A model generated the notes under the pieces. That model ran no database searches. It was given only the letters and a program-made list of their open reading frames with translations, and had not been told where the DNA came from. This document shows, in pieces, positions 4,369-56,336 of a DNA stretch of 64,000 bases. A program made the position numbers and the translations under genes. Positions within the stretch are counted from its first letter, which is position 1. Each line of letters opens with the position of its first letter. Origin of the DNA: Fistulifera solaris (Eukaryota); assembly GCA_030295235.1 (NCBI GenBank), contig AP026141.1, positions 248,001 through 312,000 on the forward strand, read 5' to 3'.

Positions 4369-4842
4369 GACTCATGACTCATGACTGAAATGCTGTCGTG
4401 GTCTCATACTCATAGAACCATTACTTTGGGTCTATAGTAAATAATAGAAAACAACGTTTCGTAAGGCTCTTCGACGTTAAATACAATCATGTGTAATGCA
4501 ACGCTGCTAGAGCCTATTTACTGCATTAGCGACAAAAGGAGCTGCTGAACGAACGAATCTTAGATGACATTGACGCTCGAACGTAGCGAAATACGGACAA
4601 CACTTTGGTCCATAGTAAATACAGATATCAACGTTTCACAAGGCTCTTCGACGTAAAATATGATCCATTGTAATGCAAACACTGCTTAAACCTTTTTCAT
4701 TACAACAGCGACAAATTTAGTCTAACATAGACTAGTTTGATGCGCGAACGAAGTATAGGCAGCAATTTCGCTCAAAGAAAATTGACTCATGAGTGAAATG
4801 CAGTCGTGGATAAGTTATGTTACACTTTGGGCTATAGTTAAT
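4369..4842 (+). repeat. Three tandem copies of the bipartite dyad element within diverged ~180-200 bp units
   Basis: Dyads at 4380-4400 and 4788-4808; second box at 4421-4442, 4599-4620 and 4821-4842; 4423-4536 aligns by eye with 4602-4715. Confidence 0.75.
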
Positions 4843-5045
4843 GCAGTTTTTCTTATTTTAGGGCAAACCTTATTAACAGAACGTGATCCGTGTCGCAACA
4901 GCAACGCCAGGAAACCACTCGCATTCGTCGCACACACACGTCAATGTTTCGTTTTCTCTCATCGTAACCAACGACATCTCTTCTTTGATGCCTTACAGCA
5001 AAATAGTCCTGAAAGCTCTCAAGGCATTATTCAACAACAAACGAC

Positions 5046-7401
5046 ATGCCCCGAAGAATACACTTACTGAGTTTAGCGGTGGTATGTTTCGCGGGAACGG
5101 CATCGGCGTGGCTCCCTTCCACTTCCAGCGCCCCTCGATGGAGTCATCATCGTCGTTTCTCGACCACATCGAGTGGGGAAGCATCGACCACCACCAGCAA
5201 TGGATTGACGTACGACGCGAAAAAGATTCGCAATTTCAGTATCATTGCGCATATTGATCATGGTACGACGCTTGATTGCTCGGTTGTCGAAAGAAAATAC
5301 AAGCCAAACTGACACTCTTTCTTCGTCCTCCTTCATATCTAGGCAAATCAACTCTCGCCGATCGATTACTCGAGTCCACCAAAACAGTTTCTGAACGTGA
5401 TATGACGAACCAATTGCTCGACAATATGGATTTGGTAAGTGAATCACTGTCGTTTAAATTAAAATTGATTGCTGAACTCACGGATGAATGGATTATTCAG
5501 GAACGTGAACGAGGTATTACCATTAAGCTGCAGGCTGCCAGAGTACTCTATACAGCAAAAGATGGAGAGACATAGTAAGTGATGAAGAACCTTTAACATC
5601 GTCATTTTTGCTTGGTCTAAACTGACTTTGTTTGCTCGTCCGGGCAGCTGCCTCAACTTAATTGACACTCCAGGTAAGAAAGAATTGGTACGCCTTTACG
5701 ACCGTTTCACGCTATGACTCATCCATTCTGATAGGGCACGTGGATTTCAGCTATGAGGTTTCTCGATCTTTGGCGGCTTGTGAAGGAGCGCTTTTGGTGG
5801 TTGATGCTTCGCAGGGTATCGAGGCACAAACACTGGCCAATGTTTATCTGGCGTTAGAAAATGATCTGGAAGTGATTCCCGTTCTCAACAAAATTGATTT
5901 ACCCGCTGCGGAACCGGAACGGGTTGCCTTGGAAATTGAAGAAACCATCGGACTGGATTGTTCTGATATCGTTCACGCTTCGGCCAAGGCAGGTATCGGT
6001 ATTGAAGATATTCTCGAAAGTATTGTGCAAAAGTACCGCCGCCTCCCGCCGCCACTGGAGGACCCTTCCGTGCACTTATTTTCGACTCGTATTATGACGC
6101 TTATCGTGGAGTGATTGTATTCTTTCGTGTCGTAGATGGAGAAATCAACACCGGTGATAAGGTTCGCTTTCTCGCGAGCGCGGCGGAACATGATGTGTCG
6201 GAGATTGGCGTCATGCAACCCAATCAAGTTCCTACACAGGCCCTGCGCGCTGGAGAAGTCGGATATTTGTGGGGTAACATCAAAGATGTGTTGGATGCTC
6301 GTGTTGGTGATACTATTGTATTGTCCAAGGAATACAAGCTGCGCAAAGCCGATGTGAAAAATGACCAAGAACCCATTGAGCCTTTGCCTGGTTATGCCGA
6401 TAGTGTCCCCATGGTGTACTGTGGACTTTTCCCTGTAGATGCTGATGACTACGAGTCGTTGCGTGTTGCTTTAGGAAAGCTTCGTTTGAACGATGCAGCT
6501 CTTTCGTATGAACCGGAAACTTCGGGCGCTATGGGTTTTGGGTTTCGATGCGGATTCTTAGGTCTCCTTCATATGGATGTCATCCAAGAGCGATTGCAAC
6601 GAGAATATGATATTGATCTGATTGTCACTGCGCCGTCGGTTGTTTATAAAGTGCAGAAGAACGAAGGTAAAGAGGAAGTTATCATTGACGCTCCTTCTAA
6701 AATGCCTGACCTCGGACGGAACGATGTTGCACTTGAGCCCTATGTGAAAATGGATATCTTGACACCAAGCGAATACAACGGCGCTATCATTGAGCTAGGT
6801 CAAGAACGCCGTGGTGTCTTGATCGATATCAAGTACCTTACTCCTACACGATCCACCATTACCTACGAAATACCACTTGGAGAAGTCATCACGGACTTTT
6901 TTTGATCAGCTGAAATCACGCACACAGGGATATGCGTCGATGGAGTACTCGATAATCGACTATCGAGAAAGTGATCTGGTTCGTCTTGATGTGAAAATCA
7001 ACTATGAAAATGCACCAGCTTTGGCCTGCATCGTTCATCGTGATAAGGCCCAGCAAGTGGGCCGTAGATTATGCGCTTCACTCAAAGAGCTTATTCCGCG
7101 ACAAATGTTCAAGATTCCGATTCAAGCGTGCATCGGTGTCAAGATTGTCGCATCCGAGCACATCAATCCAATGCGTAAGGATGTTCTAGCGAAATGCTAT
7201 GGTGGTGGTAAGTCAAAGTTTTTGTAACGAAACTATTCAAACAGCTTCCGCTGTCCTAACAAACTGTTTTTATACTAAGACATAACACGAAAGAAAAAGC
7301 TCTTGCAGAAGCAAGCCAAGGGTAAGAAAAGGATGAAATCGATCGGAAAGGTCAACGTCCCACAAGAGGCTTTCATGGCAGTCTTAAAGCTAAATGACTA
7401 A
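5046..7401 (+). CDS. lepA: Plastid-targeted translation factor EF-4 (LepA/GUF1)
   Basis: [67 protein letters not shown]; presequence ASA-W; introns 5263-5342, 5435-5500, 5575-5647, 5674-5734, 7208-7279; apparent indels near 6040 and 6900. Confidence 0.95.
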
Positions 7402-7462
7402 ATTTTTTTAAATGTGATGTTTTTACTAAAATGGATTCGGATCACGTCGGAGAGAATCTATG

Positions 7463-10011: not shown

Positions 10012-10718
10012 GGTTTGCTTCACGCCGCAATTCGAAATGAACAGAAGCAATGGTACGTTGTTCGCGCAGTCAAAAGCTCTATATCCTCTGTAGTTGTTGT
10101 CTATGATTATTTATTAGCAGCAAGGAATGCAGGCGGTGGAAGCTAAGGATTTATTATAACATCATCCTCACACCATGGTAAAACGGGTGTGACTATGTAA
10201 CGATTAAATTCCAAGTGGGAGGAGCACGCGCGAACGGTTCCTCTCTGCCTTATTGCGTTGCGCATGACTTCGAATGTGAAGCAGTGTCGTATTGAAGCCG
10301 CCCAATAACTTTTAAGAGTAAACTCCAGTGCCGGTGGGCCAGTTACATCTTATCCCCCCTCAGATTGTCCGCCTTTTGAACTCTGGCCGCATTCAGCGGC
10401 AACAACTCCCCCAATTTTGAAAAGTATCAGCTTCGTCAAAGAAATATACTGTCGAATATGCAATGGAAATAATGGTAGGATCGAACGCTGGAGACGAAAA
10501 CTTGACGACTGACTCGTAACTTTAATAGTTAGTCGTGAATAATTTCCTTATGTTTGAGTTAAACTGACAACATAGCTCGGTAATTCCTGCTCTAGCTTGG
10601 TGAGCCATTAGTAAATTGATCAAGATATCTATCAGTGACAGCATAAGCACAACACGCCTCGATGATTGTTTACCAGGGTACGTCGGAAATCCTACGAATA
10701 TCGTCGTCGTCTGTTTTT

Positions 10719-10773
10719 GGTATAGAGCCAAGTGTACCCGGAACCTAATCACGACTGCATTCCAGTCATGAAT
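10719..10773 (-). repeat. Copy of the bipartite dyad element
   Basis: Reverse strand reads TCATGACTGGAATGCAGTCGTG-ATTAGGTTCCGGG-TACACTTGGCTCTATA. Confidence 0.7.
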
Positions 10774-11339
10774 GATCGTTCCGGGTCATTAGCTGCGAAT
10801 CCATCTATGTTCGTTCTGTTCGCGAAAAACTATTGCAAGCTAACATATAGTAATTGCAAAAGTCCCTTTGTAGATCAGACAAGTTGATGGAAATATTGGT
10901 AGCGACTGCTCGTGTTTCATGACTGAAATTATTCATTCGTTCGAACTCTGGCGGCACGTGGGGTAGAAATTTGCAATATTTGTGACATCAATAAAAGAGG
11001 CTATTTCACGAGCTCAATGTGCATTATCGGCTTCAAGTAAGCAGTCGCTAAGTTAGGGCGATGTCATAGGTTTATTTATAATTGGTTCTATCTGCGGGCG
11101 GGGGCAAGCGGCAACTATCGATTCCAGGACTCGTTTTGTTCAGATTGAAGACCGTGTCCGCTGTCCGCTGGATTGCGGATCTTGTTCAAGAGCCAAATAA
11201 TACTGATACTCTTTCATTAGCTTTCACCCGTTGAGGATGTAGGATGTAGACTATACCAGGTAGACGTTGTATGACGATTGACGACGGAGACGTCAGCTTG
11301 AGTTCCATAGATCCTAGAGATCCTCTGGATAGTCATGTA

Positions 11340-11640
11340 GTCATGGTATGGTTGGACGTAGATATTGGTTGTAGCTCCATCTGTGGTTGCGGCGTTGCGG
11401 CTTGATGTCGGCCTTCCACTTGAAGCTTCCAAGATCAAGTCGTGGCCATTCGAAATGAGAAGGGTGGGCCATGGCAAGGATTTCTGATGTAGAACCGAAA
11501 AGCGCCCATAGTATTTCTAATATCCCCGTCATTCTTTGGCTGGATACTCAGTACCGCTTGCAGTATCTCCCGTTGTCAACTGGCGAACTGGGAAACTCTT
11601 CGAGTTCTTTGAAAGTTCTTCTGGGATGTCAAGTGTAGTA
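11340..11640 (-). mobile_element. Possible degenerate Ty3/Gypsy reverse transcriptase remnant
   Basis: Broken frames give SKSFPV...SIQPKNDGDIR...FYIRNP...LGSFKWKAD, in the order expected for the N-terminal Gypsy RT motifs. Confidence 0.3.
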
Positions 11641-11884
11641 CGTTTTCTTACGTTGGACGAGGATCTATAATTACGCAAGTCCAGCGGCGAAGCGTAAAGC
11701 GTAACGAATGAATGACAAAGCTTCACAACTTCAAGATGCAAGGTCCACGTACCACACTCAAGACACAAGACACAAGCTCCATTTTCTCAGCATGCACGCG
11801 TAAATCGTCGGTTCCTGCGCTTGCCGTCATTAGCATTCATTATTATTTTTTTTTTATTTTTCGCCACCTATTGAATGACAAATC

Positions 11885-12385: not shown

Positions 12386-12900
12386 TTTTTGCTGACATTC
12401 TAAGCGATTCATTTCCATGCATAGAAAAGCGAGCGCGAACACAAACTGTACATAACTCTTCTCCAGAAGCACAATTGCTTCTATGAGTTCTTCATAGACT
12501 GCTAAATGAAAGTCGACGCACGACGCATTTAACGACACAAGTCATCTACCAAGACGATAAGCTATTCCATTAAATATAAACTATGCATTAATTACGCACC
12601 CTTTTTCCGTAAACAAGTAAACATGTCGTTCTTAGCGTTGCCACAAAGGTTGCCGCTGGCTAGCTAGTGCTTGCCAATCAATCACATGTCCGCTTTTTTA
12701 GCTTCCTGCGGCGTTATTTACCTCGCCACAATTTCGTATTGCCCTCTGGTGTCAACCCCTTCTCCAATAAAGCAATAAGTCGACCGCCACTTTTTGCCCC
12801 TTCGCGCCATAATATTATTCACAACGGCGGAGAAGTCGGTCAAGTAGCTCGACACCTTTGATACAACTATAGCCTATGGCCAAGGATATCGTTATCACAC

Positions 12901-14019: not shown

Positions 14020-14201
14020 TGTGTTGTTTAGGGGAAGGATTTAGGATGAATTCTTGTAGATTGTATACTCAAATTACGGCAAAGCAATGACAACAACAAC
14101 AATAAAAATCGCGGTCGGCACTTTTTTCTTTTTTTCTCCTCCGTAGGGACGACGGACGGTCAACAATCACCGCCCGGGACTGGATTTAAATTAGTCGTCG
14201 G

Positions 14202-14402
14202 ATGAGGCGTCATCGCGTCCGCACTCTACTACTGGTACTTTATTGTATGTTACTCTCTCAAAAGCCTTAACCCTGACGTACATGACTCACTTGAACACGT
14301 ACATGAGGCGTCATCGCGTCCGCACTCTACTATACTACTTTATTGTATGTTACTCTCTCAAAAGCCTTAACCCTGACGTACATGACTCACATGAACACGT
14401 AC
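14202..14402. repeat. Near-perfect 101/100-bp direct tandem duplication in a divergent promoter
   Basis: ATGAGGCGTCATCGCG...GAACACGTAC at 14202-14302 and 14303-14402, with few differences. Confidence 0.9.
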
Positions 14403-20087: not shown

Positions 20088-20190
20088 TTTTTGTTGTAAT
20101 GTTTCAGTTATGATGTAAACTTCAATGAAGCTATAGGTCCGTCATAGGTGTTATTGTATTATTGTATTATTGTAAAGGTGAATGGAAATG

Positions 20191-20293
20191 CGACGAGGAG
20201 CAGGAAAGGACGTTAAAATTCTGCCTCTCATTACAGGTTTCTACGTAGAGCCTACGGCTAGGCAGAATTTTAACGTCGTTTCCAGAGTCGTCG
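20191..20293. repeat. Foldback inverted repeat with 18-bp perfect arms
   Basis: GACGTTAAAATTCTGCCT (20209-20226) pairs with AGGCAGAATTTTAACGTC (20260-20277); extends imperfectly to GGAAA/TTTCC and CGACGA/TCGTCG. Confidence 0.9.
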
Positions 20294-20315
20294 TAGTAGT
20301 TTTGTCAACGGAAAT

Positions 20316-20377
20316 CGACTCATGATTGAAATGCAGTCGCGGATATTTTGAGACTACACGTTGGGAATTTAGTAAAT
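20316..20377 (+). repeat. Copy of the bipartite dyad element
   Basis: CGACTCATGATTGAAATGCAGTCGCGG-ATATTTTGAGAC-TACACGTTGGGAATTTAGTAAAT. Confidence 0.75.
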
Positions 20378-20523
20378 GGGCAACACAACAATAGTCCGCG
20401 GAAACAGAGCTACATAGGTAAAGTACAAGGTTATAAAAAACAGTTCACGTGAAGAAAGAGTCTTAATTTTAGAGCTTTATAGATCAATGTATCTATCTCT
20501 AACCTGCTCCATTAACTAAGAAG

Positions 20524-21946
20524 TTATAAAGCAACGGAAGTCGCCGAATTTTGTAAACTAAGCTTGGGTCGGTCCACTTGCTGACTTCCCACATCTGTTT
20601 CGGGTTCTTCTTTTCGAACGTAGGTGACATCATTCAATATTTCTTGAAATGAGTTCACTACTTGTATACTTTCCGTATCCTGTACGGCGGCGTCGGTACC
20701 AGCCACCGAATCCGTAATGTGGCTGTCGGCGTCGCCAAAGAGTATCCGTGCGGTTCCTCCTCTCCGCTTGAGCGTTACCGAATCGTTACTGCCAGTATAA
20801 TCGCCATAATCGATGGTGGCATGGAGACTACCGGGCGTACTTTGCTCGGGTCGATCGCGGTCAACAAACGGAGTCGATTTCGCGGTTTTGGTCGATTGCG
20901 CATCATCGTCCGGTTTGCCCTTTTTGTCACTTTGCGCCGCACGAACCACACGACCAACAAAAATACCAAAAACGCTCCCAGCAGGGAAAATCATGGCGAT
21001 TCCGGCTCTCGTCAAACCTTCATTGAACGCATGATCCGAAGGTGCGTCATCCAATTCACTCGAAAGCGCCGGCTCCTCGTCGGTCGGTTCCTCGGGATGT
21101 TCGGTAAACGTCACACTCGTAAGATTGATGGCATCGGATTGTGCCAACGGATTGGCAATTTGCAGCAAGTCGGATTCACCACTGCCGGCGGTCAAAAAGT
21201 TTAGAACAGCATCGACGACTTGGTCCTTTTCACAAAGATCCGTGTAAGACACTACGACACTCCCGCTGTACCATCCACATGTTGCGCACGATGATATTTC
21301 GTTAAGAAAGACGTCCCGCGATCCCGAGGTAATGGAAAGCACACACGGTAGCGAATTGCTTAGGTTCGATGTATTGTTGCCGTCGGCACACAATTGTGCC
21401 GCCAAAATGTCCACCGTCGCTCCATCGACCCACGCAGGAATATTTGTCTTTTCGAAACACAACAAAGAGTCGCGTCAGCGATAGAGAATGCGTGAGATTG
21501 CTGCCCCTACGAGAATATACAAAAAAACATTATTCTTTCGAAGAAAAACTTACCGACCACGTGAGATCCGTTGTTTCACTGAAGGCATCTATTTCTACTT
21601 CATATCGATACGTCACTTCAACGGTGTCAGCATCCGAGGCGGCGGGGGCGCACACCCGGAGGGTGGTGGGTCGAGGAACGGAAGCAACGGGGGATCGTGT
21701 GGGTGCGATGGACGATCCCTCGTCTTCGTCGATAATGGTAATGTTTTGTAAATGCCGTGTCGTTCGCATGCTACTTTGGGCGTCAAGAAGAAGTACTAAA
21801 GAGACGAAGAATGAGCAAACAAAGCAGTCTTCACAAACAGCGAGAGAGAGGCCATGCAATGCAAAGGTGCGCAGGCGTAATAAATCAACGAGGACGAGAG
21901 GTCGAGGAATTTTCTTGAAGCAAGCCAAAAATCCCACTCCATCCAT
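20524..21946 (-). CDS. Type I membrane protein with RXL motif and Cys-patterned extracellular domain (cluster member 1)
   Basis: Hydrophobic leader, RHLQ, VTYRYEVE...QLC...CATCGWYSGSV, TM AGIAMIFPAGSVFGIFVG; intron around 21450-21552; start uncertain. Confidence 0.7.
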
Positions 21947-22327
21947 TCGTTGGAGTATTGAATTTTCCGTTGAAGGAGCAGCTCACTATGGTTAGGAAGA
22001 AACACGAACGCCAGACGGCCTCATTTCGTCTAAATAATAATCTCCACGCACGACGAACGTCGAAGAGATTTCACTTTAAATCGTACAGTCACACATGTAC
22101 CAGTCATCCCATAACAAAGGATCGAATACCGGATACACAAATTGTATCGTTGTGCTTGCTCATACGGTACCCAAAGCGTTAGCTCGTAAACAAGTCTTTA
22201 CAAATTTAGCTCTGTCACATGAAAACAAGGCAAACCACACGTCGTCTCATTATTTGGCGAGGCAACCTCTCACAAAACCTCACCCATTTCCATCTTTCAT
22301 TGAACACTTCCATCTCTTATTACAACC

Positions 22328-23614
22328 ATGAAGTTTCCTGTCACATTAGGTTTTCTTTCTCTCGCGACAACTCACTCGGCTGCCCAATTTGTTGGATTGT
22401 TTCCGGATAAGCCGACACCGGCTCCGGTGGGCGCCAGTGAGTTCTTGCCCATTCTTGTCAACAAACCGTCGGATTTTCCTTCTGTCCCTTTAACAGAAGA
22501 GGAAATTTTGGACCCCATCTCGGATCCGCCTTCGGACGTTCCGTCCGATTTGGTTTCAGACGTTCCTTCCGATTTGGTTTCGGATGTACCTTCCGACGTA
22601 CCTTCGGATATTCCTTCTACGTCCCCGACAGTGTCCTTCGCGGCGGCATCCGTCAATGCTTCCCATATCTTGTATGGATTTTCCGCGGCGTCTGCGGCAT
22701 CGGATGTGCCATCCAGTAGTCCGTCGGACGCCGTGTCGGATGTTCCTTCGGATGTACCTTCCCTGATGCCCAGTGATGTTCCATCGGATGCACCCTCCCG
22801 TATGCCATCGAGTGAGGCAGATGACGACTCGCTGTTACCAGAAGGTACCGTGAACAATTACACAATCTGCGGCGTGTGGAATGAATCCAGTTTGGAGCAA
22901 GCGGAGGTATCGCACTCCAAATACGTGTACACGTTACAGCTCGCAGCAACAAAAGCGGATATTCAAGACACCATCCATTCCGTAGAGAAACTGATTTTGG
23001 AGGAGCTCATGGATAAAATGTGCGGTGTCTTTACGTTCGCGCTGGCCGTAGGGGCGACACCAGATGACTTTGCGACTGGTATGTTTAATGAGCAATGCAT
23101 AGCTTGATACCACAATGATATTACCTCATATTAATCTTCTTTGGTTTCCACAGCGAAGTGCGGAGATGCCTGCTATATGCTTTATGGTTCTGTTGAAATA
23201 AAATCAAGTACAGAAAATGTTGATGAGCTGCTGGAGTTGAAATGTCAAGCGCAACGAACAATTCGAGAAATGTTCATTTTTCGGGCATTTGATAGCGTGA
23301 GTCAAATAACAGAGGCCACACTTCTCTATTTTGATCAAGCAGAAGAACTGCAATGCAGCGCGTTGAATGGAAATTCGAATGAAGGACTTGTCCCGAGCGA
23401 GCAAGTAACTTCCGGTGGAGAGTCTATCATCAGTGAAGAATCTTCGGATGAAGGCTTCTTAACAACAGGAGCATTGGTCGGTCTTTCGTTTTTAGGCGGC
23501 ACACTGATTGCAGCTATGGTTGTAGGCATCCACTACAAACACACACAAAGAAATGCGAGACGGAATGTGAACCTCACAGAAGAAGATTTGAGCATGATTA
23601 TAGCAGACGTTTAG
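22328..23614 (+). CDS. Type I membrane protein with PSDVPS repeats and Cys-patterned domain (cluster member 2)
   Basis: Signal peptide; PSDVPS tandem repeats; intron 23079-23153 gives ...DDFATAKCGDACYMLYGSV; TM GALVGLSFLGGTLIAAMVVGI. Confidence 0.8.
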
Positions 23615-24172
23615 TGGAGCTATCGTAAACAATGGAAATAAATTGCTGGTGTTCTTATAAACTAAACCTCTAGAGAGTCTACACTCTAAACTCTGAACAT
23701 GCAACCAAAAAAGTGAGGCCGTGCACCTTCTGGAGACCATCGCGGCGGACCGCGCAGCATCGGGGTCGTTTCGACAATCGACTGTAGGGTTGTGAGTACA
23801 AAGTAATAGTACTAAATTCTTACTCGGTTCTCATTGTTAACTGCACTCTATCGAACGGATCGCCGGATGTTATGTATATAAATGTACTGTTAAGGTTCTG
23901 TGTCTAGATTTAGTACAGTAAAACAAGATAAAGCCCTAAGTATTTGAAGCATCACTTTCGCACTCAGTTTAAGTGTAGAAACCTTTTTCATTGACCTTAA
24001 ATATATCATCACTTACATGTTTCACACTAATATTATAAAACGTCCTGAGGATATTTAAGCGATCATTATCAGACTCTTCTTCCCATCGCTGAAAACGGAG
24101 CCTCCTCACATTGTGGACGGAGATAAAGGAAAAACACACAGCGACCATTGCATTGATAAAGATAGATCAGCC

Positions 24173-45700: not shown

Positions 45701-47725
45701 TTATGAAGCTTTACTTTTCGGGCAAGGAGTACAGCAATCGCATGACACCTTTTTCTTCGCATTGCAGTGGTCCGCTCGGATGGACAGTTGTTCGTTCCGT
45801 GTGGCGAGACCCGCCGTGCGTTTGACGCCAGTGTCTCTCTCCATGGCAGTAAAGCCCACAAGCTCGCAGATGGAAGCCGGAACCTGACCGGAGATTTCGT
45901 TCCCATCGATCAAAAGCTCGGTCAGGGCATCTCTCGACTGCCCGGGCTTAATATCCGGAAGTGTGCCATTTAGACGGTTGTTGCTCAAGTACAAGTCACG
46001 GAGCTTAGAACTGGTCAAATAGTTTCCAGGAATGGATCCTGTCAAAAAGTTATCGTTGAAGTACAGAGCGGAAATGGAGGGTATATCAAAGATTGTACGA
46101 GGAAGTTGTCCGGTGAAATAAGCATTCGAAAAGTCGGCGTATTCTAGCTTCTGAAAAGTACCAAACGCATCTGGAATGGAACCTGATAATGATGTTCCGT
46201 TCATTGACAGAATAACTAAGCGTCCGGCAAGACAACAGTGAGAGACCGAACTCTCAATGCACAACATAAGGAAGCATAGCGGGTTTTCAACGTACCGAGA
46301 TTAGAGAGACTCTTAAGCTCAGTAGGAATGGTTCCCTGGAATCCGTTGTCACCCAAACGAAGAGACTGAAGGCGCACAAGATTCCCGAGAGCGCTGCTGA
46401 TGGTTCCCGAGAACGTATTGTTTTCAATACGTAGGTCCACCAGGTTCGTATTGCCGTAAAACTCCTCGGGTATTGTCCCAGCCATCAAGTTATTAAATGC
46501 CAAGAAGTTGGTAAGATTCAACTTCCCAATTTCCGGTGGAATATTACCTGCGACCATATTATCGTAAAATACAAGGGATTCTGGGGTTGCATTGTGTGAC
46601 AAGACAAGCGTGAGCAAATGAGAGGGTGACAAAACAAAAAGCGATCCAATTTAAACGTACGAAGTTTGGTCGAATACATCAGAGACTTCGGAAGCGATCC
46701 TGTGATTTTGTTCCCAGCCACCCACAGCTTACGAAGTTCCGGAAGTGCATAGAAATCACTAATCATAGGACCAGTTAAATCGTTGTTGGAAACTTGATAG
46801 GATTCAAGCTGCGACCATTGCGATAATTTGTCGGGAAATGCTGGGCCCGTAAATTGGTTGTCCTCTAAATCTAGCAAGCGCAGTTCAGTCCATTCCACTA
46901 TCCCATTCGGCACCGTTCCCGACAAAGCGTTCTGATAGACACCAAACGATTCCATCGTATCGAGCAAACTTATCTCCTGGGGAAGTGTTCCTTGAAGATT
47001 ATTTTTGTCTGCGGAAGCATTTCATGCTGTAAGAACATTTTGACAAAGAGAATGCAAAGAAATCTCCCTGTATAACCACTCACCTAACGTAAGCTCAAAC
47101 ACTTTGTCTTCGAGATCACACGTGACTCCGTACCACGAACAATAGTTTTCATCCTTCAGCCAACCATCATTCTTGGTCCAATTGCTGCCGCCCGTCGCAT
47201 AGTAAAAGACCAATAACGAATACAGCTGAAGGGTCTGCGGCGGAGACCCGCAAGGATCCAAGGTACGCTTGAATGTAGTCAGCCACTGGAAGGCCTTACC
47301 TCGTGAGGTGGTAGGATCCTTCAAATTCGTCGTTGCGGCATTCTTGGACACGAGTTCCAACACCGCTTGGTTTTGAGGAAGCGACTCGCAAGTACTCGAC
47401 TCGCCAAAATCCATCGACATGGACATATCGTCTTCGGTTACCGATTCCTCCAGCATTTTCGACAAATCGTCGTGTACCGTCTCCAGCATGTGAGACAGAT
47501 CGTCACTACTACTTTGGCCGCCTTTCTTTTCATTTTTCGTGATGGGTGCGTTTCTATTGGAAACGAGTCCTGGTCTTCCCAAAAGTCGAGTGATGGCTTT
47601 GCATCATCATCTACTTTGAGATCATTTACGGAGATGGAATCTCTTCGTTTTCGCTGAAGTCCTTTGTCTTGACCGAAAACGATCGGAAGTAGAATCGGCC
47701 AGAAAAAGAAATTCCACCGTCTCAT
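45701..47725 (-). CDS. Secreted plant-type LRR protein (paralogue 1)
   Basis: Signal peptide, MSMSM, FYYATGGSNW...WL....CSWYGVTC cap, LxxNxLxGxIP repeats, C-terminal CDCC; three introns. Confidence 0.88.
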
Positions 47726-48436
47726 TTTGCGGATGGAGATTGTGTTGTAGCGTAATTAGCAGGTACTAAAGCTTTTACTTTTCGGTGTATGGATGATACG
47801 ATGAATGTCAAGAGGATGCACTCCGTCTATGGTTGTTATCGATAAGGCAAAGTGTTGGCAAGAAAAAGAGGAGGGAGATTTTGCAACGAGGTGCACCGAA
47901 AAATCGCAAAAGTAGACTTCGGATGAAATCTAGGTGCTCTTGGGCCTTTTTACGGTATGATTTTGTACTTTAATTTTCATACCACCCGTTTAGAACGTGT
48001 CGTACCGAAATAAGCCCTAACGCCGGATACGGAAAACAAACGGGTCGCCGAATTTTCCAGTCTACACTAAACGCTTACAATGACGACATTATTATAAGCT
48101 TTCAAGTAGCAGCAATGACTTTAATGACCACATCAATGCAAGCATCAATGACCTTCGATACTCGATACTGGAAAAAATGAAGGTGGGCTTCGCGGGCATT
48201 TTGGCTTTTGCGGCGTTATTTAGCATCCCTTTTTCTTTGTTGATGGCAAAGGTGACAAGATCTTGTGATTGATCTTCCATCCTTACCTCATATCTGGCGA
48301 TGATGATTCTTTGCACCACAAATTGCTCGAATTATCAAGTATTCAATAAGTAAAGATGTCACCGACGAAAGCACATTGCACAGCCATGTTTGTCGAAAGC
48401 ATATTATGAACAAAAAGTGCTAAATTATGATATTCT

Positions 48437-50668
48437 TCAGGGCACTTCCGAGGAGCACGAGTCGCAGCAGTCACAAACAACTTCGGGAGGCTCGGAGCAG
48501 TGATCCGCCGTAAGCAGCGTCAATGCACCGGACACTCGTAGATCGCAAACGGAAGCAGGCATGACACCCTCGAGGCTATTGTTGTCCAGCAACAACTCGG
48601 TCAAGTTGCTCAGTTGACCCTGAACGATGGCTGGAATCGAACCGGTCAATGCATTGTCGTTCAAGAAAAGGTCGTAAAGCTCTGGCGCAGATGCATAATT
48701 TGCAGGAATGCTGCCCGTCAAGTCATTGCCATTGAAATACAACGCTTTGATTGTCGGGACGTCGAAAATACTGGCGGGCAATGTTCCAGTGAACAGGGCT
48801 TGCGAAAAGTCAGCGAATTCGAGGGCTGTAAAGGGTTCAAAGGCATCACGAATTGTTCCCGAGAGCGACGTTCCACCGACGGAAAGAATTGCTTTGTAAT
48901 GCGTGTAAAAAAAGGCATCAAAAGTCAGATTTGCTGAGACGGGATGATCTACGAGTACGTACGACAATTGTCTACTTACCCAGGTTAGAAAGACGAGTGA
49001 TTTCCGGAGGCAGCGTCCCAGTGAAACTATTTCCGGCTAGGCGAAGCGACTGAAGATAAGTGAGCTCACCAATGTCCGAGGCGACTGTACCCAGCAAATC
49101 ATTTCCTTCCAGTCGCAGGTCGACCAAGTATGTGTTGTTCCAAAACGGAGTAGGGATGGGCCCCGACAGCAGATTACTGTATGCTAGGAATTCCGTCAGA
49201 TTCAGCAAGCCGATTTCGGTTGGAATTTGTCCGGTAATGGCGTTGTTGTAGAAAATAAACGAATCTGAAAGAAGACGAAGAAATGAGCGACTTTCGTGTC
49301 AAATTATTACCCATTGACAATAGAGAACATGCATACTACGTACCAAGCCCCGCCGCTGACGAAATTGTTGTCGGGATGGAACCAACGACGGCATTGGCGG
49401 CTATCCATAGTTCCCGAAGCTGTTGCAGCTGTAAGAACGGGGCAGTCGCTAATTCACCCGTCAGGAGGTTGTTCGAGACGCGATAGACTTCCAAAGCCGT
49501 GAGTAGTGCCAGCGTTGTGGGGAATGCGGGTCCGATGAGTTGATTGTTTTCCACATCAATAAACTTCAAGTTTGGCCAGTTCAAAACAGCAGGAAGTGTG
49601 CCTGTCAAGTTATTGCTGAACGCACTCAAAACTTCGAGTGACTCAATCGCCCCCAGTTCGTTCGGTGGAGTGCCTTGAAGATTGTTGGAATCTGTTGAAA
49701 GTTTGGATATATTGTGAGCCCGTATTCGTGAGTCGAAACTCTCCAATCGAATGTCGTGCTTACCTAGTGCGATCTCGGTCACATCTCCATCCGCGTTACA
49801 AGTGATCCCATACCATTCACAATAGTCAGGCGTCACTAACCAGCCAGTGTTGTTCGTCCACGTAGCTCCCTCTGTAGAAAAGTACAGAACAATTAAGCTG
49901 TATAGACTCAGACTTTTGGCGGGGTCACCACACAACTCTGTTGCTGATGTATTCGTTGTATTACCCATCCAACGGTAGGCAGCGCCCTGGGGAGTCGACT
50001 CGTCTTCAATCAGACTGGAATTCGACACGGTCAAAAGGACATTCAAAAGTGCCGGATCCCGCAATAGAAAGTCGCAGTTGTCATTCGGTACGGGTGTCGC
50101 ACTTGCCCGATCGGGTGTCGGCGCCAGTGTCGGCGTCGACGTTCGATTGCTGGGCACCACCGTCGCCGGGGGGTACCGGCGCTACAGTAGTGAGATTGCT
50201 GGACACGGGCGACGCCGTCGTCTCTGTCGCAGGTGCAGAAGTGAAAGTACTTGCGACGGGTGCGACAGTAGTGGACGTTACGGGTCCAGAAGTGGGTGCA
50301 CTGACAGAGGACGGGGCACTGGGAATCGGATCGACCACCGGTGGGAGGGTCGGCGCGGAGACGGGTGCTACAGGTGTAACACTGGCCATTGTAGGCACAG
50401 GTGCCATCGGAGAGGGACTAGGTTGCACAGGCGTCCCTGTTGTCATAGACATGGACATGCTCGTGATATCTTCGAGAAACCGATCGAAAGCCAAGCGGTG
50501 ATCACTGGTGAAATCTTGCCCCTTGTCCCAGAAACTGGAATGAGTGATCTTGTTCTCAGCTTGCGCAATCGGGATGACAGCATTGCGCTTTCGTCGAATC
50601 TTCAAGTTAGTCTCGGAGTTGACCATTGCGAACAAGGTCGAGCACAGAACAACAAGAAACAGGCTCAT
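48437..50668 (-). CDS. Secreted plant-type LRR protein with Thr/Pro-rich stalk (paralogue 2)
   Basis: Signal peptide, RFLEDITSMSMSM, TPQGAAYRW, CEWYGITC, LRRs, CDCC; introns, plus an indel near 50130. Confidence 0.88.
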
Positions 50669-51286
50669 TTTTTGCATCAATACACGTCGTCGTGAAAAGA
50701 ACGAAAACTCGAGATGAATACAACTCAACTGTTCCTCTCTTACGACTCTAATAAGGAGTCCTATTGCTTGCAGAATGAGATGCTTGTAACGGATAGGATA
50801 TACGAGACTAAAGCTTTGTTCTGTGTTTTGCCTCTCGGTGAACAAAAATTTGGGTGAAGTGTGCAACTCCTCCGTTTCTGTTCGGCATATTTCCTCCTTC
50901 CAGTATCTCGTAAAGTGAACTATCTTTCGCGCCAGTCGGGACACAATGGCCATAGTAACCTAGTTCAACTACCCGTAATAATCAGTTATTTAAGGTCAAA
51001 CAATTTTTACAAATAAGATTTCGTCATGGCGGGAGTTTTCGGCTCATTCGTAAGACGGAATGAGGGACAGACGAAAAAATGGGGGTATCCGAGACTCTCT
51101 CCTCGCGATGATTTTCACGATGCTTTTTTTCCCACCGACGCGTCTTTGGTCGTCGCTTTTCCTTCGTTCAATCTGTCTATGAATACTATTATAAGCGCCA
51201 AACATAAACAGTTTTGAATATAAATTACAAAAAGAAAGTCTTAGACGAACTTGAATGGATTTTACGTCAGCAAAGACGTCGGAAGA

Positions 51287-52254
51287 ATGAGATTCAAAGC
51301 CAAACTCGCACCCGAACAAGTATCATTGCTCTATTCCGTAATCGTACCACTGGCGCGTCTTTCTTCGAGCGCTTCCGAGACAAGCGCATGGGCGCGAAAT
51401 GGAAGTATTTTGTACATGGATTCGGATCGATTTTCTATATCTTGCAAAGGACGGTCACAGAGACGGACGGAATTTCCTGCTTCGCGGAATTCCGTGCGGC
51501 AGAAGGCATTTTCTTAGAGCATCGCATCGAAAGTGTGGCGGAGAACAATGGGATTTTGATGGAAATTGACTTGGGGCAGTTGAAATTAGCCCTTCAGTCG
51601 GTGTGTGCGAACAGCATGAACTCGTCCGAACGAGGTACGATCGAAGCCGCGTACAATCTCGACGAACGATCCGCCGTATTTAAGCTAGCGAAGCGAAATA
51701 ACATGGCGTGTCTGTGCATTGAAGCACTTTCGGCTTCTAAAATTCAAGTGCATCATGCCGTTCCGGTGCGGATTCTACGTGTCACAGACAAGCAACAATA
51801 TATGCCGCCCATGATTGACGATCCGACCGTCAAATTGCAAATTGTGGCGCCGCATCAAGTGCAAACACGACCTTTACGGACTATATTGGAAAATATGCGC
51901 ACCATGGAGACGGCACGGAGTACCCACCCGACGGTTCTGGTATACGGCAATCAGCAAAGTGGCGAATTAACGATTAGTTTAGAATCTGAGGGGGCGTCCA
52001 TTCGCGCCTATTTTGCGGATGTTGCCCCCGCTGCCACGGCGGATCCCGAAAAGTACGAATGTACCGTCAAAGTCGACGCGCGGAAGCTTTCCGCTGCTTT
52101 GCAATGGCAGCAGCAGCCTCAGTACATTTCGTCGGCGCTGTTGGGGCTGTTGGAGAACCAGCAATTGATACTACACGTCAGCTTGGAACCCGCAGGGGTT
52201 GGGTTTTTCACCTATTACGTTCCTGTTCACTATTTATCGAAAGAAGCGGACTGA
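51287..52254 (+). CDS. HUS1: Checkpoint clamp (9-1-1) subunit Hus1
   Basis: MRFKAKL start; F.EHRIESVAENNGILMEIDL..L..AL; KLAKR; HAVPVRIL; FTYYVP; indel near 51450. Confidence 0.85.
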
Positions 52255-52477
52255 TTTTGTACTCGCTCGTCGCATTGTGTATTTACTAACTTTCATAGGT
52301 CCTTCATACTTTGGAAAAATGCCACTCATTCTTGCAACTTGTCATCATCTTGCAATCACAACTTACTATTAGGGGTTTCTGAAGCTCATTAGTCAAGTAG
52401 GGCTGCTAAAGGGTGCCGTACTTAACTTTGGGATCATGTTTGAAAGGCTGCGGTCGAGCATTCATGGCTATAATGAT

Positions 52478-52534
52478 CACTATCCATTCGAATGTACTCC
52501 GTTTTTCGCAGCCACGACTAAATCAGTCATGAAA
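52478..52534 (-). repeat. Degenerate copy of the bipartite dyad element
   Basis: Reverse strand reads TTTCATGACTGATTTAGTCGTGG-CTGCGAAAAACGGAG-TACATTCGAATGGATAGT. Confidence 0.55.
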
Positions 52535-53075
52535 CAAAAAAGCAAAAGACAGCGAACGGCGAATAAAGGTTAACAAATAAGTGAGCAAGATGTATCGTCA
52601 GGTGCAACAGCTAGTCCTACTTCACTACCAAAATACCAGCCTCATTTGAAAAACATCATGTGATAATAAAGCGCGTCGACAAGAAGCGTTTATTCAAGCA
52701 ATCAAGCATAAAGTTTAACGTCTAACCTTCGCACGCTGTTGTAAACATGCCGTCTCTACGGTTTTGAACCATTTATTGTTATGTTCCCGTTGAGACATTT
52801 CATTTATGTCCATCAAACCAAGGAAATAACACGCATCAAACGCCAGCCGAGCCCAAAAACTCTCACCCTCACTGGTTGATAGAACGAAAATCCATGCGTT
52901 GAGAATGAATTGTCGACACTTTGAGAGTCAAGGCATAAACAAGTCTTGTAGAAAAGATTCTTTTGAAAGTAGAATTGCCGATTTTGTTGACTAGCTCAAC
53001 AGAGTCTCTTGATTCGTATCCTTCGTTAATTTTTGACCATTTGTATCACTGCATCCGCATGTTTGTGCAACCACC

Positions 53076-55238
53076 ATGATGATGAGAATGCTTTTAAAAG
53101 CGATAATAAGCTGCAGCGTCCTAAGACAGGCGCTCGCGAATGGCCTTTCGGATGGTCTACCCGACGAAGCGGCGATGGCGCGACAAAAAGCAGGGGCGGG
53201 AAAATTAGAGAAGGACACAATTGATGCAATATTCGATGAAGACGGAACATTGAGCGCGATGTGGGAACAAGAAGCAAAACGTGCACAATTGGAAACAAGA
53301 CGACTATTTTTCTCAAACCATGGTAGTATGCCGCTTGTACCAACATCGAGTCCTGTTCCTGCTCAAACAGCCAGTCCCTCCATTGAACGGACCCCGGCGC
53401 CATCGAGCGGGACATTCTCCCCAGCCTCTGGAGAGACTTTATCACCCTCATCGGAAGGGACACCGGCACCTTCTTCAGCAGGAACATTGTCTCCCGACTC
53501 TGGAGGAACATTGGCCCCCGCTTCTGAGGAAACATTAGCTCCTGCTTCCGAGCAAACGTTGGCTCCAAATTCTGGTGGCTCCTTGGCTCCGGTTTCTGGG
53601 GGAACTCCCGCTCCTTCCCCGTCGCAGACCACTGGCGGGGATTGTTTGGAGGGTACAACACTGGACGTATATTTGACAACACTTCTGAGCTCGATAACAT
53701 CCGAGGATATTATTTTAGATACTGCTACACCGCAAGGTCGGGCATTTGCCGCCATGATCAGTGACCCGTTTGTTGAACAAAACGCTTGTAGCGAAACAAT
53801 TGATCAGAGATTCGGTTTGATGACATTCTACTATTCGACGGGTGGAGAAGAGTGGTCAACACAAACCAGCTGGTTGACCGATTCAGATGAATGTACTTGG
53901 TTCGGAGTAATCTGTGATGACGCTGACTCTCGTGCAACCAATTTGACGCTAGGTACGTCGCATGTAACTAATTGTTCCTTGTCTTGGAAATCTGCTTCTC
54001 ACTTCGCCTTCATTACTGTTATAGGAGTCAACAACCTTTCCGGGTCCATTCCTGAGGAAATATCAACCCTCTATAAATTGACTCGATTGGAACTTTTCGG
54101 AAATAATTTGACGTCTACCATTCCTGCCGGAATTGCAAATTTGACCGAACTAGCGGTGATTGATTTAGAAGAGAACTCATTGACAGGAACACCGCTTTCC
54201 GATGCCGTGATGCAACTGACGAGTCTCTCTCAGGCATTTTTCTCGAGAAATGCCTTTGAAGGTACTATTCCGACTACAATTTCGAACTTGGCCTCATTGC
54301 AAGACTTTTGGATCGCCGCCAATTCAATGTCTGGATCACTACCTATCGATATTGGAGGTCTGACCATGTTAAGATCATTGATCATGTACGAGAACGCGTT
54401 CGACGGTCCCCTGCCCGAGACGTTTTCTTTCTTGACGAATATCACCAATATGCAGCTTTATGACAACGATTTCAGCGGAAGTATTCCATCGTCCATGTTT
54501 GGCTTAACGCAACTCAGCGTCCTGCTTCTGGATGGAAACTTCTTGGATGGATCCATTTCCTCCGAAATATCATTCTTAACAGCCTTGACGGATCTTCGTC
54601 TCCATGATAACAACTTTGATGGCGTGATACCAGATGACATTGCCTTTCTGTCGAGCTTGAAATTCTTGACATTGGGCGACACTATGCTCAATGGGGCAAT
54701 CCCGAATGTCTTTACTCTGATGGAAGGCTTGGAAACCATCGATCTCGGAAATAACATGCATACCGGAATTATACCCGACTCGCTCTTCTTCTTACCTCTT
54801 GTATCCAGAGTGTATCTCCAAGGCAATGACTTGACTGGAGCCATACCAGTGAGTTGGTCGGACCCACCCAATTTGATCGATCTCTTCCTGAACGACAATC
54901 TTCTCACGGGAAGCATCCCCACCATTGACGATGGCGAATTTGCCAACTTGCAAGAACTGACACTACAATACAATAGCTTGACCGGAGCGGTACCCGAGCC
55001 CCTGTGTGCCTTGCGAGCGGAGGACGGACTCGCGCGGTTATTCACCGATTGCGGTGGCGATGAGCCCGAAGTGGATTGTTTGTTCCCTACCTGCTGTAAC
55101 CGATGCTTTGAGGGAGAGAATCCGGAAGCAGCGTCACCCGGTGGCAACTCCACAGAGCGACTATTAATGGAGAACAAGTTGGATGGCCGACATGCTGGAA
55201 CCAGGAGTGATCGATATAGCGGTCGAACACGAAGATAA
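53076..55238 (+). CDS. Secreted plant-type LRR protein with TLAPAS repeat stalk (paralogue 3)
   Basis: Signal peptide, RRLF...GSM, 8-aa TL(S/A)P repeats, QRFGLMTFYYSTGG, ECTWFGVIC, many LRRs; in-frame 72-nt intron 53953-54024. Confidence 0.9.
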   Translation: MMMRMLLKAIISCSVLRQALANGLSDGLPDEAAMARQKAGAGKLEKDTIDAIFDEDGTLSAMWEQEAKRAQLETRRLFFSNHGSMPLVPTSSPVPAQTASPSIERTPAPSSGTFSPASGETLSPSSEGTPAPSSAGTLSPDSGGTLAPASEETLAPASEQTLAPNSGGSLAPVSGGTPAPSPSQTTGGDCLEGTTLDVYLTTLLSSITSEDIILDTATPQGRAFAAMISDPFVEQNACSETIDQRFGLMTFYYSTGGEEWSTQTSWLTDSDECTWFGVICDDADSRATNLTLGTSHVTNCSLSWKSASHFAFITVIGVNNLSGSIPEEISTLYKLTRLELFGNNLTSTIPAGIANLTELAVIDLEENSLTGTPLSDAVMQLTSLSQAFFSRNAFEGTIPTTISNLASLQDFWIAANSMSGSLPIDIGGLTMLRSLIMYENAFDGPLPETFSFLTNITNMQLYDNDFSGSIPSSMFGLTQLSVLLLDGNFLDGSISSEISFLTALTDLRLHDNNFDGVIPDDIAFLSSLKFLTLGDTMLNGAIPNVFTLMEGLETIDLGNNMHTGIIPDSLFFLPLVSRVYLQGNDLTGAIPVSWSDPPNLIDLFLNDNLLTGSIPTIDDGEFANLQELTLQYNSLTGAVPEPLCALRAEDGLARLFTDCGGDEPEVDCLFPTCCNRCFEGENPEAASPGGNSTERLLMENKLDGRHAGTRSDRYSGRTRR

Positions 55239-55481
55239 ATGAACCAATAGATATAAGAAACGGGGGCCATGGTCGGATATGCTGAACAACTTAAAAAGTA
55301 GAGAGCAAAAAAGTAATGCTCTCAAAATAAAAGTATGTAATGATGGATTAACGATAGACGTAGCACTTTGTAATGTGTGGGTAATTCGCCATGATGAAAG
55401 GACCTGCTTTTTGAAAGAAATGTTCAAAAATCTCCTTCACTGCGAAGAGCTTCCCCAATACACGGCCTGTAACACAAGTGC

Positions 55482-56057
55482 TTACTGACGACCCCTTCCA
55501 CGGCCCGCAAAGCCACCACTTCGACCACCGAAACCTCTTCCTCCGCCTCTACCTGGACTTCTGCCTCCTCGACCCCCCGGTGAAAAACCTCGTCCGCCAC
55601 CGCGTCCACCACCGCGTCCTCCATCTCGTCCTCTACCTCCCCCGCGACCAGCTCCTCTACCCGCGGGTTTACCTCCTCCTTGTGGATTTGTGAAACGAGA
55701 CAATGGCAAGAGTTTATCTGTTCCAACAAAGACTTGATCTTTGGGTTGAAAACTCTTACTCAATACGCCCGGATCCATCTTGACGGTAAAGAAGGTTTCG
55801 TTAACAATCTTACCAAAGATTTCGTCGACTTTACCAATTTTTCGTTTATTTTGCAGATAGACGCCCGCATTGAAGTAGGGAACCTTGTCGGTGACCGTCC
55901 AACGGCATACCAACTCGGATTCACAATCGTGCTCGACGTAACCGGCTTCGATAATCTCGACCGGAGGACCTTCGTCGCGGAAACTACTACTACTGCGACC
56001 ACCGCCTCGTCCTCCTCCACGTCCTCCCGGAGATCGTCCTCGGCCTCGGAATGACAT
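55482..56057 (-). CDS. GAR1: H/ACA snoRNP subunit Gar1
   Basis: RGG-rich termini; GPP, KVPYFNAGVYLQNK..IGKVDEIFG, KLLPLSRF. Confidence 0.95.
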   Translation of the reverse strand: MSFRGRGRSPGGRGGGRGGGRSSSSFRDEGPPVEIIEAGYVEHDCESELVCRWTVTDKVPYFNAGVYLQNKRKIGKVDEIFGKIVNETFFTVKMDPGVLSKSFQPKDQVFVGTDKLLPLSRFTNPQGGGKPAGRGAGRGGGRGRDGGRGGGRGGGRGFSPGGRGGRSPGRGGGRGFGGRSGGFAGRGRGRQ

Positions 56058-56210
56058 GTTTCTTTTGTGTTTGTGTGAATTTAAAAGAAGAACAGCAGTC
56101 AAGTAAGTAGTGTCTTCTGTTATTGCTGTCAACAAACTATTTTTGGAAGGATCCGAAACATCGGTGGATGGTTGTCGTTCATTTTCGCACATTCGTGAGT
56201 ACCGGTCTCA

Positions 56211-56336
56211 ATGGACTATGGTCCAGAGTGTTGTCCGTTTTCAGCACGACTCCATTTCAGTCATGAGTCGACGGGCGGAAGACTCTAAGGTCAAAGTGTA
56301 GATGACTTTTTCTCTGGACTGGATTTCAGTCATGAG
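56211..56336 (-). repeat. Two tandem copies of the bipartite dyad element in the GAR1/ALG2 divergent promoter
   Basis: Reverse strand reads CTCATGACTGAAATCCAGTCCAG-N13-TACACTTTGACCTTAG and CGACTCATGACTGAAATGGAGTCGTG-N12-AACACTCTGGACCATAGT. Confidence 0.8.

Follow-up and report, generated by a model that had tools for sequence, protein, structure and literature searches.

Introduction

Several described systems combine a hairpin with a short conserved box. For HINE elements, the layout of the end is given as a short palindrome separated by some tens of bases from a palindromic box of 12 to 15 bp (PMC4067079). In that account, HINE/DINE-1 Helentrons are short, non-coding and dispersed, with a palindrome near a semi-palindromic box of 12 to 17 bp; the box defines families, and subfamilies differ between box and palindrome. 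The 5' end of the Fusarium elements FoHeli1 and FoHeli2 is described as a TC start leading into a hairpin (PMC5148889), and the part of the HELIANO survey on diatoms lists HLE2 for two of two genomes, F. solaris not being among them (PMC11417382). From the compact genome of the diatom Phaeodactylum, 235 MITE, 261 putative non-autonomous and 873 unclassified repeat copies are listed (PMC5859163). In F. solaris itself, centromere/ARS motifs of about 50 nt are described as recurring along the chromosomes, often stacked (bioRxiv 10.1101/2021.11.10.468027).

Here we analyzed a window of 64,000 nucleotides from the Fso_h subgenome of Fistulifera solaris, in which a reading of the sequence alone had noted nine copies of an element made of a dyad (box 1), a spacer and a second box (box 2). 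The copies belong to a family of high copy number, with a longer shared body, spacers shared between unlinked copies, head-to-tail and truncated copies, and an array whose length differs between the subgenomes. Like the HINE/DINE-1 Helentrons, the copies are short, non-coding and dispersed, with a palindrome near a semi-palindromic box, and differ among themselves between box and palindrome; unlike them, they showed no paired second subterminal repeat, TT target, terminus, central microsatellite or autonomous partner. Of the HLE2 stem-loop feature, the hairpin 13 to 14 nt from box 2 is present, and no terminus could be placed near it. As in the descriptions of Helitron2/HLE2 (FoHeli1 and FoHeli2; PMC5148889, PMC11417382), the best-kept sequence opens with TC followed by a hairpin and insertions occur in tandem; the differences are that the asymmetric terminal inverted repeat is seen in only one of eight copies and that likeness extends upstream of the TC in several.

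Results

Box 1, searched with up to three mismatches, gave six matches in the 64-kb window (4379, 4787 and 20320 on the forward strand; 10771, 56266 and 56335 on the reverse), compared to a mean of 0.00 in 100 shuffles. Box 2 alone gave eight matches at three mismatches versus 0.85 expected, and four of the eight lie within copies. Each of the nine positions listed by the sequence-only reading was found again to within 1 to 2 nt (Table 1). Two-box copies occur about once every 9 kb in the window. Upstream blocks and tails, used as queries, retrieved no further significant copies in the window. Two candidates were rejected: a PWM match at 14196 (13.4), which falls inside the shuffle range (mean best 13.0, maximum 17.0), and the large hairpin at 20186-20301 as a relative of the unit tail (scores of 8.5 to 10 against null means of about 9).

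Table 1. Copies of the repeat in the window and the positions of their parts
Feature	Span	Strand	Parts
Unit A	4372..4536	+	box 1 4379-4400; box 2 4421-4438; tail as far as 4536
Unit B	4574..4715	+	box 2 4600-4616; third block ~4629-4655; tail ends 4715
Unit C	4757..4838	+	box 1 4787-4808; 13-nt spacer; box 2 4822-4838; without tail
Single copy	10680..10789	-	box 1 10750-10771; 14-nt spacer; box 2 10719-10735; tail ~10680
Box 1, left 13 nt only	10917..10929	+	back to back with the 10771 copy
Single copy	20295..20378	+	upstream block; box 1 20320-20341; 14-nt spacer; box 2 20356-20373
Degenerate copy	52478..52532	-	box 1 52513-52532 (loop shortened); 17-nt spacer; box 2 decayed
Copy upstream of GAR1	56215..56266	-	box 1 56245-56266; 13-nt spacer; box 2 56215-56231; without tail
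Second copy of GAR1/ALG2	56283..56335	-	box 1 56314-56335; 14-nt spacer; box 2 56283-56299

The copies differ in local detail. In unit A, the start of box 1 (7 nt) is duplicated immediately before the box, and the 20-nt spacer repeats the right half of box 2, imperfectly and in inverted orientation. The hairpin is absent from unit B because an upstream block (4574-4581) joins straight onto the last letters of box 1 at 4582; contig ends that run out before 4582 include box 1. The left arm of box 1 recurs, inverted and imperfect, at 4761-4773 within the upstream block of unit C (4757-4786). In the 10771 copy, 10736-10744 pairs with 10778-10786 as a perfect outer stem of 9 bp. The 20320 copy is 76% alike to 4761-4843 across 85 columns, and in the GAR1/ALG2 pair the 56335 copy sits 69 nt upstream of the 56266 copy. 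Units within one array are only 78% alike, and repeat periods vary (69, 179 and 222 nt).

Box 1 is indeed an imperfect dyad, with 42 of 48 cells paired over eight pairs. None of the eight stem pairs shows compensatory changes, and the six broken cells of the 48 are as after neutral decay. Copies retain the T-G mismatch as well as the letters of the loop, and it is therefore the sequence, not the pairing, that is conserved. Over the six full copies, mean ungapped identity is 0.87 in box 1, 0.75 in box 2, 0.27 in the spacer and 0.26 in the tail; in the 20 nt upstream of the hairpin it is 0.30. The core of box 2 is palindromic at 10/13, 10/13 and 8/13 positions in three copies and at no more than 4/13 in the other four.

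If the spacer is taken to run from the last letter of box 1 up to where the ACAC word begins, it measures 13 to 14 nt in five of seven two-box copies, so that the near-fixed length reported earlier (as 12 to 13 nt) holds for most of them; the others have 17 and 20 nt. Among 11 listed contig rows (of 20), nine have 12 to 14 nt, and lengths of 10 and 21 nt also occur in contigs. The spacer had further been called free in sequence, which did not hold up: it is common to distant unlinked copies or copied from neighboring DNA, and that of the 4582 unit (unit B) resembles those of 56266 (z 3.6) and 52532 (z 2.8). Nor is the element bipartite. Likeness continues for 40 to 100 nt past box 2 in three of eight copies and upstream in some, with a tail common to 4379, the 4582 unit and 10771 (z 4.1 to 9.8); it ends just past box 2 in 4787 and 56266. 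The full unit is about 210 to 225 bp, and the two boxes are its core.

No terminus of the element could be placed, as likeness fades on both sides. The letter preceding the TC of box 1 is C in five, T in three and A in none of eight copies, and no target-site rule was seen in these eight. HLE2 elements carry short inverted repeats (11-18 nt) at or near both ends and insert into a TT (T-rich) target without duplicating it. Around the copies, a search for box 2 in inverted orientation found none; an inverted box 1 arm was found upstream in one of eight (P = 0.013, uncorrected). An extended outer stem, with covariation of the upstream flank and the spacer, was considered and rejected: P was 0.001 to 0.13 over 15 settings with seven copies, and 0.13 to 0.60 over six settings without 10771. 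Since the signal is lost without that copy, we read it as template-switch scars in single copies.

Public contigs revealed how common the repeat is. At 80% likeness, 256 records of run X1 and 260 of run X2 align to 3900-5500. The summed X1 depth in three module bins is 1034, 1110 and 1857, versus 11 to 19 for single contigs; 69 X1 contigs were counted at 4793 and 31 at 4638. The third block beyond box 2 is common to the piled-up contigs, and at other loci box 2 or the tail is joined to the next upstream block, the modules running head-to-tail. Only eight of the 256 X1 records are at least 99% alike, including the contigs of the locus itself, and no young uniform subfamily was seen among the 256. 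Contigs of two further runs, X3 and X4, do not extend over the array, which counts neither for nor against it, and none of the runs listed as containing the sequence is recorded as RNA.

Contigs resembling the homoeolog are shorter across the NSE3-lepA interval: X1 record 2 lacks 389 nt and X2 record 11 lacks 369 nt. The three-unit array therefore differs between the subgenomes. Two units would amount to 401 to 408 nt and the whole array to about 470 nt; the gap is closer to the former, so the homoeologous interval may retain one module.

The copies had been seen only between genes, and this largely stands: eight of nine cores lie outside Met-to-stop open reading frames (ORFs) longer than 120 aa, where a random 55-mer falls wholly outside 31% of the time. 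The exception is 56335, which shares 34 nt with an upstream, in-frame extension of the ALG2 ORF. Copies occur in both orientations and at varied distances to genes. Two face the start codons of lepA (259 nt away) and GAR1 (212 nt away), and the 52532 copy faces Hus1 at its 3' end. The distance to the first ATG in the next ORF is 870 nt for 10771 and 968 nt for 10917.

Rfam gave two weak matches in the window, neither on a copy, and ARAGORN found no tRNA in it. The box 1 pattern had no match in viral contigs and the two-box pattern none in prokaryote genomes. In metagenome contigs, the box 1 pattern occurred at 35 loci. Box 2 follows it at none of them, and none resembles the window outside the pattern itself; we read these as chance matches that are uninformative for related diatoms. 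H/ACA snoRNA was dropped as an identity of the tail because the tail is common to many loci and lacks Rfam support. A literature search by title and abstract start, with Repbase and Dfam outside its scope, found no described element that matches.

Discussion

On balance, we lean toward an old, protein-less, non-autonomous mobile element, probably of the rolling-circle kind and HLE2/HINE-like, with putative membership in HLE2. According to this model, which is built from sequence comparison, an element of about 210 to 225 bp would have been copied by transposition to hundreds, probably thousands, of sites in F. solaris, in several sub-lineages. Copies would survive only between genes because insertions into exons were purged. 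A transposase would have recognized two sites, the hairpin and the semi-palindromic box 2, and this recognition would have kept the boxes similar between sub-lineages as spacer and tail diverged. After insertion, the copies may have decayed, duplicated locally in tandem and been altered through template switches around the hairpin. More tentatively, the enzyme might have been an HLE2-type (Helitron2/Helentron) HUH/helicase acting by rolling circle; a scan of 44 ORFs in the window found no RepHel partner. The very uneven conservation requires many sub-lineages or host selection, one burst followed by neutral decay being insufficient. The rolling-circle origin raised in the sequence-only reading is the better kind of explanation, but not in the form of a Helitron 3' end at TAG followed by T, as 31 X1 contigs share sequence at about 20 nt beyond that point. 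TAG is not the terminus because the repeat is longer, a third block lies beyond box 2 and contigs show tandem joins. As described, the MITEs, putative non-autonomous elements and unclassified repeats of Phaeodactylum (PMC5859163) are also small, non-coding and interspersed in a compact diatom genome; this unit differs from diatom MITEs in having no terminal inverted repeats or target duplication. A MITE was rejected, as no inverted pair brackets the unit among the 25 longest inverted pairs listed or in a self-comparison.

The leading alternative, which we regard as possible and clearly less probable, is a host cis-element, transposon-born or not, through which a DNA-binding protein or complex would recognize the dyad and box 2 at a set distance from each other, as a promoter, insulator, chromatin or origin signal. 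It would account for boxes much better kept than spacer and tail, for the near-constant spacer in window copies and contig rows, for sequence rather than pairing conserved in box 1, for the two copies that face start codons and for the single module possibly kept in the homoeolog. Of the promoter motifs in Table S4 (PMC5935921), comparison by eye places at least 9 of the 23 biased toward Fso_h and at least 4 of the 19 biased toward Fso_l within copies. Against it, orientation is not fixed (52532, 10771 and 10917), unit B lacks box 1, spacers of 17 and 20 nt (window) and 10 and 21 nt (contigs) occur, and the shared spacer and tail require copying regardless. The F. solaris centromere/ARS motifs look similar by eye, but for each of the three motifs taken from their description, none of the 14 best window matches falls on a copy, and ORC sites of P. 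tricornutum have no common motif (10.1101/2024.07.07.602421). The earlier inference of two protein sites keeps the support of the near-fixed spacing and is weakened by the inherited or rewritten spacer, the longer element, the loss of box 1 and the unfixed orientation and distance.

Among such signals, snRNA-type upstream promoters consist of an upstream element and a TATA element at a fixed distance. The copies resemble them in having two boxes a near-constant distance apart and a TATA-like word in box 2. They differ in occurring in hundreds of copies with inherited spacer and tail, in no fixed orientation, and with no downstream RNA gene in Rfam. As a core or snRNA-type promoter, the copies show neither fixed orientation nor fixed distance, measured to start codons rather than to transcription starts. 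A bolder version, to which we give slightly less credence than to a host cis-element in general, is that a transposon-born module was co-opted as a genome-wide, sequence-specific control or chromatin signal. A host protein would bind dyad and box 2 at fixed spacing at thousands of sites, roughly 9 kb apart on average, one module would be kept at orthologous promoters in both subgenomes, and subgenome-specific variants and array expansion would feed homoeolog expression bias.

We consider it improbable that the family is a dispersed satellite-like repeat, in which unequal exchange, or the rolling-circle replication of small DNA circles, would multiply a 200-bp unit and ectopic recombination would spread it, no dedicated transposase being involved. 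Head-to-tail units at this and other loci, array length unequal between the subgenomes, variable periods and the lack of a visible terminus or target site are in its favor, but arrays are the exception in the window, where the majority of loci have one or two copies. The modest likeness of units within an array implies little homogenization, and whole-unit amplification would not give a conserved core with decaying flanks.

It is very unlikely that the repeat is a SINE-like retroposon or a small RNA gene family with a transcript folding into hairpins. Two additional stems in the unit tail point that way, as do two RNA-like runs with one contig each, from another locus, that overlaps a module (records 16 and 20). 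However, Rfam has no match on any copy at E values up to 1, there is no tRNA, no A-rich tail or target duplication was seen, covariation is absent from the stem, and folding is better than in shuffles in just two of six copy regions (z of -2.4 for 4370-4500 on one strand, and -3.4/-2.9 for 10670-10790). Least credible of all is a canonical Helitron (HLE1) 3' end with a hairpin and then a TAG terminus: the likeness that stops directly past box 2 in 4787 and 56266 would suit it, but the shared third block has already refuted it for the most part, and likeness passes TAG in 4379, the 4582 unit, 10771 and the 31 X1 contigs. The distance from hairpin to TAG is about 29 nt, where a canonical element has its hairpin 10 to 12 nt before a CTRR end (PMC5148889), little body is shared upstream of the hairpin, where it belongs, and in none of the eight copies does A precede the TC, as insertion between A and T would have it.

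The repeat family is an unannotated and very common intergenic component of a model diatom for biofuel. It may underlie some of the published short subgenome-biased promoter motifs of F. solaris, and it is a marker for dating both subgenomes. If host selection were shown, it would be a rare example of a long, sequence-defined cis-element in a diatom, and homoeolog expression bias in an allopolyploid alga would become directly testable.

Gene content and distribution of the copies

The Hus1 protein encoded in the window was identical to F. solaris FisN_19Hh137 (100% identity, 264 aa) and 96.7% identical over 212 aa to its counterpart in the other subgenome, FisN_19Lh137. On this sequence comparison, we therefore assign the window to the Fso_h subgenome of F. 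solaris or a near-identical strain. Pfam analysis of 44 ORFs supported the gene names proposed earlier, identifying MAGE/NSE3, a lepA-type GTPase, Sel1 repeat, otubain, Hus1, LRR, GAR1 and an ALG2-type glycosyltransferase. The features located are collected in the table.

Features located in the window
Feature	Position	Remarks
Copies, by box 1 position	4379, 4787, 10917 (partial), 20320	plus strand
Copies, by box 1 position	10771, 52532, 56266, 56335	minus strand
Putative short block	4270-4309	flanks array
Array	4372-4838	three units, head-to-tail
Putative short block	4872-4935	flanks array
First lepA intron	5262-5341	skipped by a contig of run X3, which is spliced RNA
Borderline box-1-like dyad	14172-14199	not above shuffles
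Tandem duplication, 100 bp, near-perfect	14202-14402	between choline kinase and DUF1995 genes, adjoining the dyad
Long hairpin	20186-20301	arms of 24 nt with 96% complementarity (z -6.7); candidate MITE-like insertion, immediately upstream of the copy at 20320; unrelated to the repeat-unit tail
16 nt preceding box 1	20304-20319	loose recurrence at 20531-20545, about 227 nt (one unit length) downstream; likeness not above shuffle level
Two adjoining ORFs	22304-26218	12-nt-based low-complexity repeats, Pro/Ser/Asp-rich
His/Asp-rich tract	24517-24630	within one of these two ORFs
Leucine-rich-repeat ORF cluster	45701-50181, 53037-55238	on both sides of Hus1
Hus1	51287-52251	

The repeat unit consists of box 1 (an imperfect hairpin), a spacer, box 2 and a tail. 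Allowing up to three mismatches, box 1 was found at six sites in the window and in none of 100 shuffles; the copies reported in the sequence-only reading were recovered as these six sites and three further partial copies, as it had described. Seven two-box copies per 64 kb would amount to thousands in a 50-Mb genome, if the window is typical. Eight of the nine cores lay outside Met-to-stop ORFs of >120 aa, and the ninth reaches into an upstream extension of the ALG2 reading frame. By chance, a 55-mer falls outside ORFs of >120 aa 31% of the time, which gives about 0.003 for five loci when the ALG2-frame overlap is discounted. Purging of exon insertions predicts this placing as well as function does.

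The repeat is longer than two boxes

The element had been described as bipartite, a view that did not hold, as likeness continues past box 2 and partly upstream. In a self-comparison of the window, 4423-4536 and 4602-4715 were 78% alike, 4761-4843 and 20295-20378 were 76% alike, and 10680-10789 aligned to 4361-4477 at 67%. The 45 nt downstream of box 2 were common to the 4379 copy, the 4582 unit and the copy at 10771, which lies at an unlinked locus (z 9.8, 5.6 and 4.1), with 3 of 28 copy pairs passing z 2.5. Upstream, the likeness was less marked, with an uncorrected p <0.05 in 5 of 28 pairs.

Contigs from four public sequencing runs were aligned to 3900-5500. At 80% likeness, 256 records of run X1 and 260 of run X2 displayed three depth peaks on the modules, with near single-copy depth between them. 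Summed depth does not represent copy number; X1 contig counts are safer, with 69 contigs at 4793 and 31 contigs at 4638. Position 4638 marks a further block of conservation, the third, some 20 nt beyond the TAG|T of the sequence-only reading. In both studies, contigs of the window's own allele ran across the array and showed 0-4 differences, so the array is not an assembly artefact. X2, a wetland metagenome, contained, for the NSE3-lepA locus, both a near-identical allele and one resembling the homoeologue, which suggests that this allopolyploid type is present in a second sample. At 4793, the allele proper to X2 seems to have the consensus letter of the family.

In unit B of the array (the 4582 unit), the upstream block runs without a break into the final letters of box 1. 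At other loci, contigs whose alignment begins at 4582 have box 1 in their loose ends; therefore, the hairpin was probably deleted in unit B. Allowing for this loss, the array period is about 210-225 nt. Box 2 or the tail is joined to a further upstream block at other loci, indicating tandem modules there too (among the 15 of 74 joint matches listed).

In X1 and in X2, one contig connected the NSE3 end with the lepA end, at an identity of about 83-88%. These homoeologue-like contigs were 389 nt (X1 record 2, 595 nt versus 984 in the window) and 369 nt (X2 record 11, 524 versus 893) shorter; for comparison, the length of two units is 401-408 nt and that of the full array about 470 nt. The array as it stands is thus not common to both subgenomes, although one module may persist in the homoeologue. 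Depth steps in X1 hint that a second contig, which may be the homoeologue, retains two short blocks, one on either side of the array; by this depth arithmetic, they would be candidates for the genuine NSE3 and lepA promoter elements.

Spacer and hairpin

The spacer had been thought free in sequence and near-fixed in length, of which the second part stood. Measured to the ACAC word, the window's two-box copies have spacers of 13, 13, 14, 14, 14, 17 and 20 nt; the 11 contig spacers among the 12 of 21 matches listed comprise nine of 12-14 nt, one of 10 and one of 21. The sequence itself is shared between copies or inverted from adjacent DNA. The last 13 spacer nt of the 4582 unit recur at 56266 (z 3.6) and 52532 (z 2.8), 2 of 28 pairs, and by eye the contig spacers sort into a small number of types, into which those of 4787, 20320 and 56335 also fall. 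At 10771 the spacer is an inverted copy of the upstream flank, forming a perfect 9-bp stem, and at 4379, as an inverted copy of neighbouring DNA, it forms an imperfect stem with box 2. Because the flank-spacer pairing signal vanished once 10771 was left out, both spacers are read as template-switch scars rather than as a selected long stem. Across the eight pairs of the box 1 stem, no compensatory change was seen, and pairing was broken in 6 of 48 cells.

Spread of the repeat and a possible host role

Several features point to spread by copying: the copy number is high, the body is inherited, sub-lineages and truncated copies exist, both orientations occur, units stand in tandem and the subgenomes differ. 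As neither terminal inverted repeats, target duplication, a tRNA head nor an A-tail was seen at the window copies, rolling-circle elements are the best-fitting class. In HINEs, a short palindrome lies close to a palindromic subterminal repeat of 12-15 bp (PMC4067079), a layout that the hairpin and box 2 may mirror. FoHeli1/2, of the Helitron2 type, start with TC and then a hairpin (PMC5148889), a start that the best-kept part of the repeat resembles. HLE2 is recorded for the two diatom genomes surveyed, those of Nitzschia sp. DOCU1 and Epithemia pelagica (PMC11417382). In the window we saw neither a paired repeat nor a terminus, and no target site or RepHel partner; we therefore treat the repeat as an unclassified non-autonomous element that looks HLE2-like and do not assign it to HLE2. 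The canonical Helitron end at TAG|T failed its test.

The main rival, which we consider rather unlikely, is a cis-element bound by the host. In its favour, ungapped identity over six full copies averaged 0.87 for box 1 and 0.75 for box 2, versus 0.27 for the spacer and 0.26 for the tail; the boxes are tightly spaced, the X1 records are mixed, with 8 of 256 reaching ≥99%, and two copies point at the lepA and GAR1 start codons from 259 and 212 nt. This pattern can result from sub-lineages selected for mobility or from protein binding after insertion. Other copies point at a 3' end or sit 870-970 nt from the next ATG, which argues against a promoter role. Among the 42 short subgenome-biased promoter motifs in Table S4 of PMC5935921, at least 9 of 23 Fso_h and at least 4 of 19 Fso_l motifs occur in the copies, a by-eye tally in which chance matches are expected at 6-8 letters. 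Of the three F. solaris centromere/ARS motifs (10.1101/2021.11.10.468027), none had any of its 14 best window hits on a copy; ORC sites of P. tricornutum are described as lacking a shared motif (10.1101/2024.07.07.602421).

Pattern scans gave no matches in the viral collection or in prokaryote genomes, and 35 in the metagenome collection that were judged chance. Literature searches, at the level of titles and abstracts, turned up no description of the repeat. On balance we lean towards an old non-autonomous mobile element, and the family is real, abundant and apparently undescribed.
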